A stretch of 64,000 nucleotides of DNA, taken from the NCBI RefSeq assembly GCF_036971445.1, contig NC_091479.1, forward strand, positions 7,812,001 through 7,876,000, in the 5' to 3' direction. The stretch comes from Narcine bancroftii (lineage: Eukaryota). This document shows positions 54,501-59,391 of this stretch, piece by piece. The notes under the pieces were generated by a model that worked only from the letters and a program-made list of their open reading frames with translations, was not told the origin of the DNA and ran no database searches. A program made the translations under genes and the position numbers. Within the stretch, counting starts at the first letter, position 1; the number at the start of each line of letters is the position of its first letter.

Positions 54501-56410
54501 TGAGAGATCAGGGTGGGAAAGAGTTGTACCGAGTTCCAGGAGAAGAGAAACATCAAGTCAAGTTTATTGTCATCTGATTGCACAAGTACAACCTGACGAA
54601 ACAGTGTTCCCTGGTCCTCGGTGAAAAACAGGCAGACACACAACCAGACAGAACACACATACAGACAAACAATACATATGCAGGGCAAGTATTATATCTA
54701 TAAAAATAAATAAATAGATATTCTTTTGTACAAATGGTTAGCATGAGCAGTTCCTTTGGTCGTCCAGCATTCTCACTGCCCGTGGGAAGAAGCTGTTCCT
54801 CAGCCTGGTGGTGCTGGCTCTGATCCTCCTGGATCTCTTCCCCGACGGGAGCAGCTGAAAGATGCTGTGTGCAAGGTGGAAGGGGGTCCTCCATGATTTT
54901 GCTCGCCCTCTTCAGACAACGATCCCAGTGGAGGGTGGGGTGGGGGAGGAGGAGAGACCCCAGTGATCCTCTCTGCCACTCTAATGGTCCTGTGGATTGA
55001 CCTCTGATCCATTTCCCTGCAGTAGCCCCGTCCCGCACTGGGATGCAGCTGGCCAGAATGCTCTCAATAGAGCTCCTGTGGAAGGTTGACATGATGGTGG
55101 CCGGTAGCCTTTCCCGCTTCAGTCTTCTCAGGAAGTGCAGTCGCTGTTGCGCCTTCCTGACAAATGAGGAGATGTTGAGTGTCCACAATAGGTCAATAGT
55201 TAAGTGAACTCCAAGGAACTTGGTGCTCTCCACTCTCTCTACCACAGAGTTGTTGATGTGGAGTGGAGGGTGGTCGTTCCTGATCCTCCTATAGTCCATG
55301 ATCATGTCCTTCATCTTGTCCATGTTGAAATTCAGGGTGTTACTCTCGCACCATTTCACGAGATTTTCCCGCCTCTTCTCTGCAGGGCGACTTGTCGTTG
55401 TTGCTGATGAGGCCGACGACTGTCGTGTCATCTGTAAACTTGATGACACTGTTAGAGCTGGATCTGGAAATCCAGTCATTGGTCAGTATCGTGAACAGGA
55501 GCTGATTGAGCACACAGCCCTGAGATATACCAGTGCTCAGTCTGACAGTACTTGATGTTCTGCTACTGACCCGGATAGACTGTGGTCTTTCCATTAGGAA
55601 CTCCAAGATCTACTGGTAGTTACAGAGAGGCTGTTAATTCCCAGCTTCTCCACCAGCCTCAGGGGTATGATCGCATTAAATGCCGAGCTAGTCAATGAAC
55701 AACAGCCTGGTGTATGAGGTGTCATTCTCCAGGTGGGCCAGGACAGAGTGAAGGGATGAGGCTATAGCATCATCTGTGGAACGGTTTCTTCTATAGGCAA
55801 ATTGAAATGGATCTAGCATCTCCGGGAGTTAAGCTTTGATGCGTTCCATCACCAAATGCTTGAAGCACTTCATAATAGTGGCACAGGTAGTCATTGAGGC
55901 CTGTTATTGTCATCCTTTTGGATTCTGGGATGATGGTGGCTGTCTTGAACCCTGTGGGAACAATAGACTGCGGCAGTGAGGTGTTGAAGACCTCCGTGAA
56001 GACCTCCATCAATTGGTCGGCTGTCCTTCAGTACCCGACCAGGTATGTTGCCTGGTCCCTCCGCCTTGTGTGGGTTCACCTTGGATAGGGTTCTCTGTAG
56101 AGCTCGTCGAAAGAACCAAAGACTTGTTGATCCAAACCAAGGCTTTTATTAGCAAAAGACCGGAGCTCTTCACAGGTGGCCGACCAGTCCGGAATGATCC
56201 GACCTGGCTAGGGACACAACCCTTTAAGGCCCAAACAATAGGTGTGGCTTAGCTCTCAGCCAATCGCTGTAAGCACAGTCTAGATACAGTAACTATATAC
56301 ACTATGTACATTGGTGATAGATCTGTACTATCACATTCACCCCTTCTTGGAGAATTGACCCGGGGAAAAAAAAAAAAACAAAAACGAGGGAGAGAATGAA
56401 AAGGGGTAGG

Positions 56411-57360
56411 TCAAGGACTGTAGCGGTCAGGGGGTCTGACCATCCGGCGTGACCGCCGTGGTGCCGGGATTGGGGTCGCTGGAGTGGTGTCACCAGCGGG
56501 CTCATCGGGTGCGACTGCTCCGTCGCTCAATTCCCCAGTCGTTTTGTCGGCAGGGTGGCCCGAGTCATTGGGGTGCTGTTGGTCCTTCTGTTGCGGCACG
56601 GGGCCTGGAGCATAAGGAGTTGGGGGGTTTGCTGGGTCTACCGCGTCCTGAGCTAGGTCCCGCACCGAAACAGTGTCCTCCCGCCCGTCTGGGAACTCCA
56701 CGTATGCGTAATGTGGGTTCGCGTGGAGTAGAGTCACTCGGTCGACCAAGGGGTCATTCTTTGAGTGCCGGACGTGGCGTCGCAAAAGGACGGGGCCAGG
56801 GACGGTGAGCCATGCCGGTACAGTGGTTCCCGATTCGGATTTCCTCGGGAAAAGGAACATCCTTTCGTGGGGGGTGGCATTTGTTGCAGTACATAGGAGG
56901 GAGCGGATGGAGTGTAAGGCACTAGTGAGAACCTCCTGCCAGTGAGAGGTGGGGAGACCTTTAGACCGGAGAGCCAGTGTAACCGCTCTCCATATGGTGG
57001 CATTCTCCCTCTCGACCTGGCCATTACCGCGTGGGTTATAGCTCGTGGTCCTGCTTGAAGCAATGCCACACTCCAGAAGGTACTGTTGCAGCTCTGAACT
57101 CATGAATGAGGACCCCCTATCACTGTGGATGGAATTGGGGTACCCGAAGATGGTGAAAATACTGTGAAGGGCCTGTATCACTGAGGTGGCAGTGGTGTCT
57201 GGGCAGGCCACAGCGAATGGGAAGCGGGAGTATTCGTCGATGGCCGTAAGGATGTAGGTATTACGGTTGGTCGACGGTAGGGGTCCCTTAAAGTCTACGC
57301 TAAGACGCTCGAAGGGGCGGGTGGCTTTGATGACGTGGGAGTTATCCGGACGGAAGAAGT
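56411..57360 (-). pseudogene. Integrase core and C-terminus (N-terminally truncated, no start codon of its own)
   Basis: PFERLSVDFKGPLP..IDEYSRFPFA, HSDRGSSF and GNGQVERE give an intact D,D,E triad. Protease, RT, RNase H and the HHCC domain are absent. Confidence 0.9.
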
Positions 57361-58161
57361 GTTTGAATGGGATAGCGGCGATTGGGCTTCACACGAGGCA
57401 CTGTGTTTGCTGGCGGCCATTTTAGACCTACAGACTGCAGCAAAGTGGCCGTTTTTAAGGCACTTCTGGCACCTGGCTTTTCTTGCTGGGCACTGGGATC
57501 TGCTGTGCTTGTTCCTCCCGCAGAAATAACATTTCGGGTTCGCACGGGGCAGGGTAGCAGCAGCCGACAGGCCGTCAGGGGTAGGGTAGAAGGGCACTCT
57601 ACTCACATCAGAACGAGGGGTCCAGTCCCTAGAGAGCTCGGTGGATTTTAAGGCTGCATCCTCCATTGTGATTGCAATCCGGGCCACGTCCTCTAGTTTT
57701 TCTACCCCTTGTTCGAGCAAACGCAGCCTCACTTCGTTCGATCGGAGCCCAGCCACATAGGCATCCCGGACGAGGTCGCTAGTGATCTCGGCAGCAGTTT
57801 TGTCCACACAGTTACAGTCCTTGCCCAATGCCTTTAATACTTGTAAATATGCCCTGCTGGACTCACCGGGCTGTTGTTTCCTCGACGCAAGCATGAGCCG
57901 GGCATGAACTCTGTTCACCGGTTGATCATACAGTCCTTTCAGTACCTTTATGGCTGCGGTGTAAGTGGTCTCATCCTGGATGTTCTCGTAGACTCTCAAG
58001 GACACCATAGACAGCAATGCTGTTAGACGCTGGTTATCCTCCTCTACCTGAATGAATCTCAGGAAGTTTTCAAAGTTCAGCAGCCAGAACTTAAAGGCTT
58101 TGAAGGCTGTAGCTGACTGTGGGTCGATATCAAGTTTTTCTGGCCGAGTTAAACGCTCCAT
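57295..58161 (-). CDS. gag: Retrotransposon Gag with two zinc knuckles
   Basis: ATG 34 nt after the 5' LTR; CYFCGRNKHSRSQC and CQKCLKNGHFAAVC. The last residues run out of frame into integrase sequence. Confidence 0.9.
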   Translation of the reverse strand: MERLTRPEKLDIDPQSATAFKAFKFWLLNFENFLRFIQVEEDNQRLTALLSMVSLRVYENIQDETTYTAAIKVLKGLYDQPVNRVHARLMLASRKQQPGESSRAYLQVLKALGKDCNCVDKTAAEITSDLVRDAYVAGLRSNEVRLRLLEQGVEKLEDVARIAITMEDAALKSTELSRDWTPRSDVSRVPFYPTPDGLSAAATLPRANPKCYFCGRNKHSRSQCPARKARCQKCLKNGHFAAVCRSKMAASKHSASCEAQSPLSHSNTSSVRITPTSSKPPAPSSVLA

Positions 58162-59391
58162 CCCTTTCAAAAAAAATTCCTTTTGCTAATAAAATTGTAG
58201 AGCTCGTCGAAAGAACCAAAGACTTGTTGATCCAAACCAAGGCTTTTATTAGCAAAAGACCGGAGCTCTTCACAGGTGGCCGACCAGTCCGGAATGATCC
58301 GACCTGGCTAGGGACACAACCCTTTAAGGCCCAAACAATAGGTGTGGCTTAGCTCTCAGCCAATCGCTGTAAGCACAGTCTAGATACAGTAACTATATAC
58401 ACTATGTACATTGGTGATAGATCTGTACTATCACATTCTCCTCACCTCGGCCACGGCTATGTGGGAGGGGGGGCAGTTCATCAGGGGGACCTGGAGCTTT
58501 CTGCGGCATTATCCTGTTCTCATCAAACCATGCATAGAAGGTGTTCAGTCTGTCCGGAAGGGAGGTGTCATTGACCTTAATTCGCAAGGTTGACTTGTGA
58601 TACGTTATAGTCTTGATCCCTTGCTACATGCGCCTCATGTCGCCAGTGTCGCATAGCTGTCTGTGGATCTTCTGTGCATACCCTTGCTTTGCCTTCCAGA
58701 TTGCACGAGAGAGTTTTGGCCTGACTGATCTTAGTGCCATTCTACATCCTGTCCTGAAGGCAGCATCACAACCTCTTTGTGGTTAGTCTTGGTTGTCGAG
58801 CATTTGATCTCAGTGACATCCTCAATGCACTTGTTGAAGTAGCCAGTCACTGAGCTCATGTACTCCTCTAACTGTTGTAGGTGGCCGCCTCCCTGAAACA
58901 GTTCCAGTCCATGGTCTCAAGGCAGGCTTGCAGCTTTTCTATGGTCTCCTCAGCCACGTCCTGATCTCCCTGTGAACTGACCTAGTTTGCTTGGCCAGCA
59001 GTCTGTACGCTGGGGTTAGCAGGAGAGATATGTGATCTGAGTAACTAAGGTGGGGGTGAGGTGCAGCCATGTACGCACCGGGGACATTGTGGCACCTGAT
59101 CCAGGGCATTCTCTCCTCTGGTGGCAAAGTTCACATGCTGTTGAAAACGTGGAAAGACTGATTTCAAGTTAGCGTGATTGAAATCGCCGGAAACAATCAT
59201 GGCACCGTGACAAAAGAGGTAAAGGTAAAAGGAATTGAAGTGAATTGATTGGAACTAGTTTCAAGTGTAGGACAGTTGTCCTCAGTGTCTTCTTCATCTC
59301 AGAGTCATCACCATTTAAAGAGATATCATTTCCTTATGCTTTTCTGTGGAACTTGCTGAACACAAACTGGACTTCACATTTCCTTTGTTAC

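Follow-up and report, generated by a model that had tools for sequence, protein, structure and literature searches.

A Ty3/gypsy element of an electric ray with a primer-binding site complementary to its own LTR: probable self-priming and integrated fold-back cDNAs

Reverse transcription primed independently of tRNA has been established experimentally for the fission-yeast element Tf1, and it is inferred for relatives of Tf1 and for some plant lineages. As set out in the passages cited here, the first 11 bases of Tf1 pair with its primer-binding site (PBS), with RNase H cleaving after base 11, before base 12 (PMC7175516, PMC4600332, PMC5341516, PMC11042837), while the Tf1 cDNA keeps a single-stranded PBS at its 3′ end (PMC11042837). 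Self-priming has also been proposed for Tj1 of S. japonicus (PMC4600332). For plants, the Tcn1 and TAR (Houba, Osr-1) lineages are predicted self-primers, on the basis of a complement of at least 10 nt that begins 0–5 nt after the 5′ LTR (PMC6317226), and the cited part of the same source names no animal non-chromovirus clade among self-primers.

The element described here was found in a stretch of 64,000 nt from the electric ray Narcine bancroftii (hereafter, the window). It is a deleted Ty3/gypsy copy of 2,340 bp on the minus strand, the strand of all features given below. Its two 240-bp LTRs (5′ LTR, TG..CA, 58196..58435; 3′ LTR, 56096..56335) are identical to each other at 240/240 positions, and they are flanked by a 5-bp target site duplication (TSD), GAGAA, at 58436..58440 on the 5′ side and at 56091..56095 on the 3′ side. 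The gag ORF (57295..58161, with its ATG at 58161) codes for two CCHC knuckles and reaches its stop past an internal deletion junction with a 10-nt overlap (57352..57361, located against full-length copies). At this junction, gag has been joined to the integrase core, and about 2.6 kb with protease, RT and RNase H are missing by comparison with full-length copies. The original description needs correcting here, in that the copy is internally deleted. Integrase core and C-terminus (56411..57388) match Pfam rve with E 2e-19 and give no chromodomain match, and the GAA end of a polypurine tract (PPT; 56336..56348) adjoins the 3′ LTR. The insertion itself sits in an old LINE endonuclease/RT-like repeat fragment (window 58441-59200 and 55900-56090), and contigs of related repeats run across the site without the element.

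In what follows, LTR position p corresponds to window position 58436-p, and positions along the primer arm are counted upstream from −1, which is LTR nt 192. The 5′ LTR is followed by one unpaired spacer base, A (58195), which is kept in the fold-back junctions described below, and then by a PBS without TGG, TTTTATTAGCAAAAG (58180..58194). It had been noticed that the 5′ LTR is followed by A and this 15-mer instead of TGG, and the coordinates given for them are correct. It had also been noticed that the 15-mer (58194-58180) is the exact reverse complement of an AATAAA-bearing LTR segment 49 nt away, LTR 178–192 or 58258-58244, and this was confirmed on the window sequence. The 15-nt extent of the pairing is exact in the window copy, but the family-wide core is 14 bp (PBS 58194-58181), as the last PBS base varies among copies and the 15th pair is found only in one subfamily. 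This LTR segment, the primer arm (58244..58258), contains AATAAA at 58245..58250; the hexamer and a GU-rich tract (58223-58210) are arranged like a poly(A) signal and form a putative one. The 3′ LTR carries a second copy of the arm (56158-56144), with no PBS behind it.

If up to two mismatches are allowed, the window has three occurrences of the 15-mer, one in the PBS and one in each LTR, where chance would give a mean of 0.11, and none of 100 shuffles reaches three occurrences. The folding energy of the whole region is unexceptional (z −1.98 and −1.17) and, thus, the case for the stem rests on position and covariation. When folding is predicted with the RNA starting at LTR 141 or 178, the arm pairs with the PBS with a probability of 0.92–1.0 at −2 to −13. 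An Rfam search of the LTR–PBS region returned no tRNA-like or ribozyme match, its single match (E 4.4) being one expected by chance. The PBS position is taken up by a helix in which the PBS pairs over 14–15 nt with its own LTR, with no TGG.

The family is a young Ty3/gypsy. Among 1,171 candidates found by searching with LTR plus leader, the best 40 are all 100% identical, and a gapped pattern detects 1,364 LTR–PBS junctions with an intact stem in the genome. All eight full-length copies that were fetched measure 4.76–4.95 kb and have a 5-bp TSD and the same PBS, and seven of the eight contain a single ORF of 1,396–1,459 codons. The domain order of a full-length copy is PR-RT-RNase H-IN, as in Ty3/gypsy, its best solved relative being the Ty3 RT (E 3e-51); TG..CA LTRs, PPT and TSD are likewise all present, as in Ty3/gypsy LTR retrotransposons. 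Full-length copies also carry a tandem repeat of about 45 nt (L033:1388-1766), coding for an Ala/Thr-rich linker between Gag and protease, which is absent from the aligned relatives and accounts for the longer ORF. Two loci (L048 and L049) have no 5′ LTR and start within the first PBS bases, joined to other sequence. Contigs of four presumed-RNA runs, which are possibly DNA, contained no transcript start, end or poly(A) junction of the element.

The nearest named protein is from the electric ray N. bancroftii (96–97%). A search with a relative returned 910 proteins at E 1e-100 or better and, among the best 120 of these, the named hosts comprise aphid, spider, damselfly, moths, shrimp and nematode in addition to the electric ray. 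A quickly built RT-RH tree places 39 rows in a single clade with a long stem (SH-aLRT 99), apart from the chromodomain stand-ins P0013 and P0014 and from P0011, P0012, L039 and L040, which we take to be Mag-like. This tree was made by a quick method, omits L129 (a fragment too short) and contains no named Tf1/sushi sequence, and its deep branching order is unsettled. Gag, for its part, is homologous to that of stand-in P0011 (28% over 250 aa, E 7e-15) and has the double CCHC. The label of a Mag-like element, as first applied to this copy, is consequently borne out by Gag, through homology to a stand-in, but not by RT-RH, which forms a separate clade. A search of this genome with a distant Gag recovered only this family among the 30 inspected of 150 matches. 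One Narcine bancroftii gene model, P0003 (‘BRCA1 homolog isoform X2’), contains the element’s Gag at 100% identity over 64% of the query, which points to a chimeric transcript of an inserted copy or else to faulty annotation.

Compared with the known self-primers, the family resembles Tf1/Tf2 of Schizosaccharomyces pombe, Tj1 and Tf1/sushi elements in having a PBS complementary to its own 5′ LTR and no tRNA site, in a well-paired core of about 11 nt, and in a PBS retained behind the 3′ LTR in some insertions. By contrast, it shows no chromodomain or SH3_Tf2-1 Pfam match in the full-length polyprotein or in two relatives (such a match is present in P0013), its RT-RH falls in a separate long-branched clade, and its Gag has two CCHC knuckles, as in Mag-type elements. 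The pairing also extends to 16 nt in many families of the clade, there is one unpaired spacer base, and the arm overlaps the poly(A) hexamer. Moreover, the primer of Tf1 is its first 11 nt, whereas here the RNA may start at a candidate site about 50 nt above the cut. With respect to Tcn1 and TAR, the family does have a complement of at least 10 nt, but those are plant chromovirus and copia lineages.

The Mag lineage (Mag, SURL and kin) is alike in Gag homology (to P0011), double CCHC and short LTRs with AATAAA, and unlike in that the stand-ins L039 and L040 have TGG after the LTR and that RT-RH groups apart. The clade is kept out of Tf1/sushi because it lacks chromovirus domains and has a separate RT, and out of Mag because of the separate RT and the missing tRNA site. 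Cigr-1 of Ciona intestinalis has 245-bp LTRs, one ORF of about 1,200 codons, an echinoderm-like Gag and a different RT, an architecture that presumably fits relatives P0004–P0138; its likeness to this clade is one of architecture. A Cigr-1 clade has been reported in molluscs (PMC6238403). The Saci2/lennie clade is described as having a 4-bp TSD (PMC12471100), against 5 bp in this family (8/8 copies). The literature that was covered contains neither self-priming in this animal clade nor integrated fold-back cDNAs; Repbase Reports, GyDB and key older papers were outside this scope, and an earlier mention is possible.

The comparison of PBS and LTR among related families, which had been proposed as a check on this element, was carried out with 80 metagenome loci (the best of 564). 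After leaving out 46 loci without a Gag start and five with little or no upstream LTR (L073, L075, L093, L146 and L147), the 29 with a scorable LTR end and one copy from this genome were reduced to 21 families by merging nine near-duplicate loci by eye. L076, L077, L078 and L082 are close kin among the 21. The LTR end is backed by an LTR pair in 9/21 families and was placed at the CA before the complement in the other 12, where it is not independent. Viral contigs contributed only two distant loci, which served as outgroups. The layout is the same in every family: CA, one base (up to three in damaged copies) and a T-rich site, with no TGG after the LTR in any of the 30 scored loci. In the two Mag-like outgroup loci (L039 and L040), by contrast, the LTR is directly followed by TGG, and an anchored complement is missing.

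An exact complement of at least 10 nt to the family’s own LTR was found in 17/21 families, against 5/420 cross-family pairs, and those five share near-identical 11-mers; the other four families have 9–10.5 of 11 positions paired. As 18 different 11-mers occur among the 21 families, the PBS tracks its own LTR in different letters. Eighteen of the families beat all 300 LTR shuffles and, among the nine whose LTR end is supported by an LTR pair, seven have 12–19 nt exact and two have 7–8. Two further families, L073 and L075, show complements of 14 and 12 nt across contig ends. Position by position, 123/126 cells are paired at −4 to −9 (permutation mean 64), although these positions helped to place the arm. 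At −12 to −16, which were not used for arm placement, 77/105 cells are paired against a permutation mean of 47 (0/5,000), while pairing at −17 to −22 is at background (33/126 vs 31.5).

Some letters are nevertheless shared. Position −10 is a G in 21/21 families (58253 in the window copy) and is followed by a pyrimidine, giving W-G-Y at −11..−9 in the 11-nt core; the arm has T at −4 in 17/21 families, ends AAA and is then followed by RCC in most, and a purine follows it in 20/21. An exact AATAAA or ATTAAA falls within the paired 11-mer of 10/21 families, the commonest clade letters at −6..−1 being ATTAAA. A second stem beside the duplex, similar to that of Tf1 (RCC..GGY), is visible, yet it is no longer than in shuffles. 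W-G-Y was also considered as a 3′ splice site and rejected, as AG is found in only 15/21 families and is absent in this one. In the LTRs of L073 and L075, a polypyrimidine tract with CAG at its end lies a short way upstream of the primer arm and resembles a 3′ splice site; if this LTR intron is real, the start would lie far upstream of the arm. Within one foreign family from a single metagenome assembly (L079, L081 and L087), L081 and L087 differ by a compensated change at −7, in arm and PBS.

Variation inside this genome is consistent with the same pairing. Among 36 junctions with a change at −9, 16 combine T in the LTR with A in the PBS, 12 combine T with G (a wobble) and eight are mismatched, while 16 junctions changed in the PBS only, seven of them to A. 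In the sister subfamily, LTR C>T at −9 is matched by PBS G>A, a compensatory pair. As 15 of the 16 compensated copies belong to this older sister subfamily, they represent one evolutionary event, and a Fisher p computed on them overstates the support; three of the compensated copies are fold-back products, and in the five that were examined a normal leader or gag follows the changed PBS. Where the 3′ LTR of a wobble copy can be read, it mostly carries C, and such copies thus changed after insertion. In one wobble copy, however, the PBS has kept G while both LTRs read T, and the older main subfamily has a five-A PBS in 15/18 ordinary copies, which makes 14 bp the duplex common to the subfamilies. 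Taken together, these two observations leave routine copying of the primer into the PBS without support. Pattern searches for more compensated subfamilies gave no matches.

A different kind of evidence comes from 281 loci at which the LTR ends in CA and one A and is then followed by an inverted LTR that reads upstream from nt 192, beyond the PBS. Their number is about a sixth to a fifth of that of the 1,364 intact-stem junctions, among which some of them are also counted. We examined the first 90 places and all 76 matches of a pattern that enriches for broken arms, 140 distinct loci in total. Of the inverted arms at the first 90, 64 stop at LTR nt 1, two go on into the PPT and 24 break earlier. 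As many of these fold-backs have a 5-bp TSD, they are considered integrated mis-copied cDNAs, and four classes were distinguished.

Class A consists of a full LTR, A and inverted LTR 192–1, a palindrome of about 433 bp. It accounts for 18 of the 90, with an identical TSD in 14/18, and it is the product expected if plus strong-stop DNA folds its PBS end back onto the arm. Between the two arms, 1–9 substitutions are seen in 14/18 and, at two loci, the arms are equal to each other yet differ at seven sites from the yardstick copy. Class B, on the other strand, has LTR 1–192, T, a minus-sense copy of U5, a stop, and a switch to internal sequence. The switches have 0–2 nt of homology in nearly all cases, and the internal partners vary by locus while the junction register is fixed; TSDs are present in 9/10 checked. 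The U5 parts cluster at 182–203 in 22/26 cases (median 195.5, mode 192; p 3e-19 vs uniform). Eight of the 26 junctions begin upstream of 192 (157–189), and a clean cut does not directly explain these.

In class C, with 30 loci and 26 events, the full LTR and A are followed by an inverted arm that passes over into other sequence of the element. Its arms end at or above nt 132 in 22/26, eight of these at 136–143, and at 103–122 in the remaining four, with none below; within 132–176, the pile-up at 136–143 is only modestly enriched (8/22, p 0.03). It lies about 30 nt below a TATA-like word and on an Inr word (see below), in a predicted hairpin where RT pausing could also be the cause. Four class C loci, L207 (G000:C1:72964003), L228 (C1:292444878), L262 (C5:205767649) and L354 (C17:167159914), share one junction, the arm reaching nt 140–141 and continuing at element nt 665–675, and differ further inside; it seems that a variant carrying 53 nt of complement behind the LTR multiplied once it had arisen. 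Class D is a minus-sense U5 copy that snaps back at 190–193, found at 14 distinct loci in both subfamily backgrounds, with an identical TSD in 8/14. Its site lies in an imperfect inverted repeat (8 of 9 bp, LTR 190–198/210–218), which could by itself drive the reaction.

Older-subfamily fold-backs follow the four-T run of the LTR and not the parental five-A PBS (34 vs 3), and seven five-A fold-backs occur among matches of another, low-capture pattern. Breaks inside the PBS show no pile-up at 11 nt, with +6 to +11 represented in 7/20 matches of the same pattern. At L375 and L377, a 3′ LTR is followed by 12 nt of PBS and then by host DNA, as reported for the ends of Tf1 cDNA (PMC11042837); both loci resemble the integrase-independent, PBS-homology insertions described for Tf1. 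The fold-backs require only complementarity between PBS and LTR and a DNA 3′ end in the PBS; they would form with any short primer complementary to the PBS and, consequently, the origin of the primer is not proven by them alone.

What has been established directly is the pairing, the fixed register (CA, one spacer base, PBS), the covariation across families and the integrated by-products. From these, we propose that the element self-primes in the style of Tf1, using a fragment cut out of the 5′ part of its own RNA, a reading to which we assign a probability of about 70%. In this model, the transcript would fold so that arm LTR 178–192 pairs with the PBS, and the RNA would be cut at 192|193 (predicted between 58244 and 58243), probably by the element’s RNase H as in Tf1. 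The new 3′-OH (...GCUAAUAAAA) would then prime the minus strand through the spacer and U5, and the strong-stop DNA would run off near nt 193 and jump to the 3′ R. The plus strand that copies the primer, being complementary to its own LTR, would often fold back, giving rise to palindromic insertions. As a plausible second role, the helix would hide AAUAAA, and this in the 5′ copy alone. The original interpretation is partly supported: self-priming is backed by the family covariation, the compensatory pair in the sister subfamily and the fold-back cDNAs. It had left the primer to either the 5′ or the 3′ copy of R; since the inverted arms end at LTR nt 1 in 64/90 and enter the PPT in only two, the 5′ copy is favoured and the 3′ copy is less likely.

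Where such an RNA would begin may be approached from both sides. A strong-stop end near 193 would account for classes B and D, and a template end near 141 for class C, in which case the capped primer would measure about 52 nt. A start at 141 is predicted from a TATA-like word, CTTAAAG (LTR 108–114; 58322..58328), and an Inr-consensus word, TCATTCC (LTR 139–145; 58291..58297, candidate start at 58295), both with similar words in the sister subfamily. The alternative, a start at LTR 178–183 with a primer of 10–15 nt, close to that of Tf1, is supported by W-G-Y, by a lower edge of 182 for class B, by covariation that ends at −16 and by variability at PBS +16. We lean very slightly towards the start near 141.

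Taking the primer from the 3′ LTR copy is the first of the other explanations to be considered. The RNA would be cut after ...AAUAAAA, and this end would prime the PBS of the same or of a co-packaged RNA, whose start could be at about LTR 193. The complementarity and its covariation are explained equally well in this way. The purine after the arm in 20/21 families and the broad spread of U5 parts around 193, as dispersed starts would produce, also agree with it, as do the few inverted arms that run through the PPT into internal sequence (2/90 and 4/76). Nevertheless, such arms should then be the rule, whereas 64 of the 66 that reach the LTR start stop there. With its 3′ copy cut, the RNA would also lose its R acceptor; this family has no TATA-like word about 30 nt above 193, and a separate cause would be required for the break zone at 132–176. 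We therefore consider it unlikely.

It had also been suggested that the helix serves to hide AAUAAA in the 5′ LTR; in its strongest form, this would be its only function, priming being left to some other primer. The arm does combine AATAAA with a GU-rich tract below and has its PBS partner in the 5′ copy only, the commonest letters of the clade at −6..−1 are those of ATTAAA, and the hexamer bases have a predicted pairing probability of 0.95–1.0. However, the exact hexamer lies in the paired 11-mer of only 10/21 families while the pairing is kept in nearly all, so that the hexamer is not the conserved part. The register is tied to the end of the LTR and one further base, a constraint relevant for integrase ends and not for occlusion; occlusion likewise leaves the invariant G-C pair at −10 unexplained and, as the helix sits at the PBS position, no other primer site is left. 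Hiding the signal is thus at most a second role, and very improbable as the only one.

The 5′ half of a host tRNA-Ile(AAT) could act as the primer, with the LTR match being secondary. Priming sites for half of tRNA-Ile have been described or proposed for plant Bianca copia elements, in the part of the source cited (PMC6317226), and the anticodon arm of the tRNA-Ile(AAT) of this genome pairs with 9 nt of the PBS (+4 to +12). These 9 bp, which leave the first PBS bases unpaired, compare with 14–15 bp for the element’s own LTR. Position 37 of tRNAs is a purine, whereas the corresponding arm letter, −4, is T in 17/21 families, the letters following the own LTR. Moreover, tRNA sequence follows in none of the 10 copies that leave the PBS at +13, whereas 281 loci go on as LTR. 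A complementary host tRNA had been named at the outset as the finding that would speak against self-priming; the comparison covered tRNA-Ile(AAT) only, and it gave this 9-nt pairing and no copies continuing into the tRNA, which makes the tRNA a most improbable primer. Finally, although palindromes are a known artefact of long reads and the junctions are known from assembly alone, it is scarcely credible that they are sequencing or assembly artefacts or post-insertion rearrangements, given identical 5-bp TSDs in 14/18 palindromes and 8/14 snap-backs, TSDs in 9/10 inversion products, palindrome arms aged by 1–9 substitutions in 14/18, two loci with arms alike but seven sites off the yardstick copy, and a fixed junction register with locus-specific internal partners.

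Returning to a primer from the 5′ part of the RNA, a broader reading may be put forward tentatively, with odds that we place clearly below even. It holds that a metazoan-wide gypsy clade, unrelated to Tf1/sushi, starts its RNA about 50 nt upstream and cuts it internally one base past the poly(A) hexamer, so that one 14-bp helix provides both primer and poly(A) hiding, at the cost of frequent plus-strand fold-back, which would have left hundreds of palindromic cDNAs recording both primer ends.

The 281 fold-back junctions represent a natural record of reverse-transcription intermediates, which shows a cost of self-priming and makes the primer ends directly testable. If the reading with an internal cut is true, the chemistry of priming could be mapped from fossil insertions in any genome, even where no element is active. 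Elements of this kind would be missed or mislabelled by annotation based on the PBS, and self-primed elements would escape control by tRNA fragments. If true, a widespread animal clade of self-priming elements outside the chromoviruses would imply either an independent origin of this mode of priming or a much older one.
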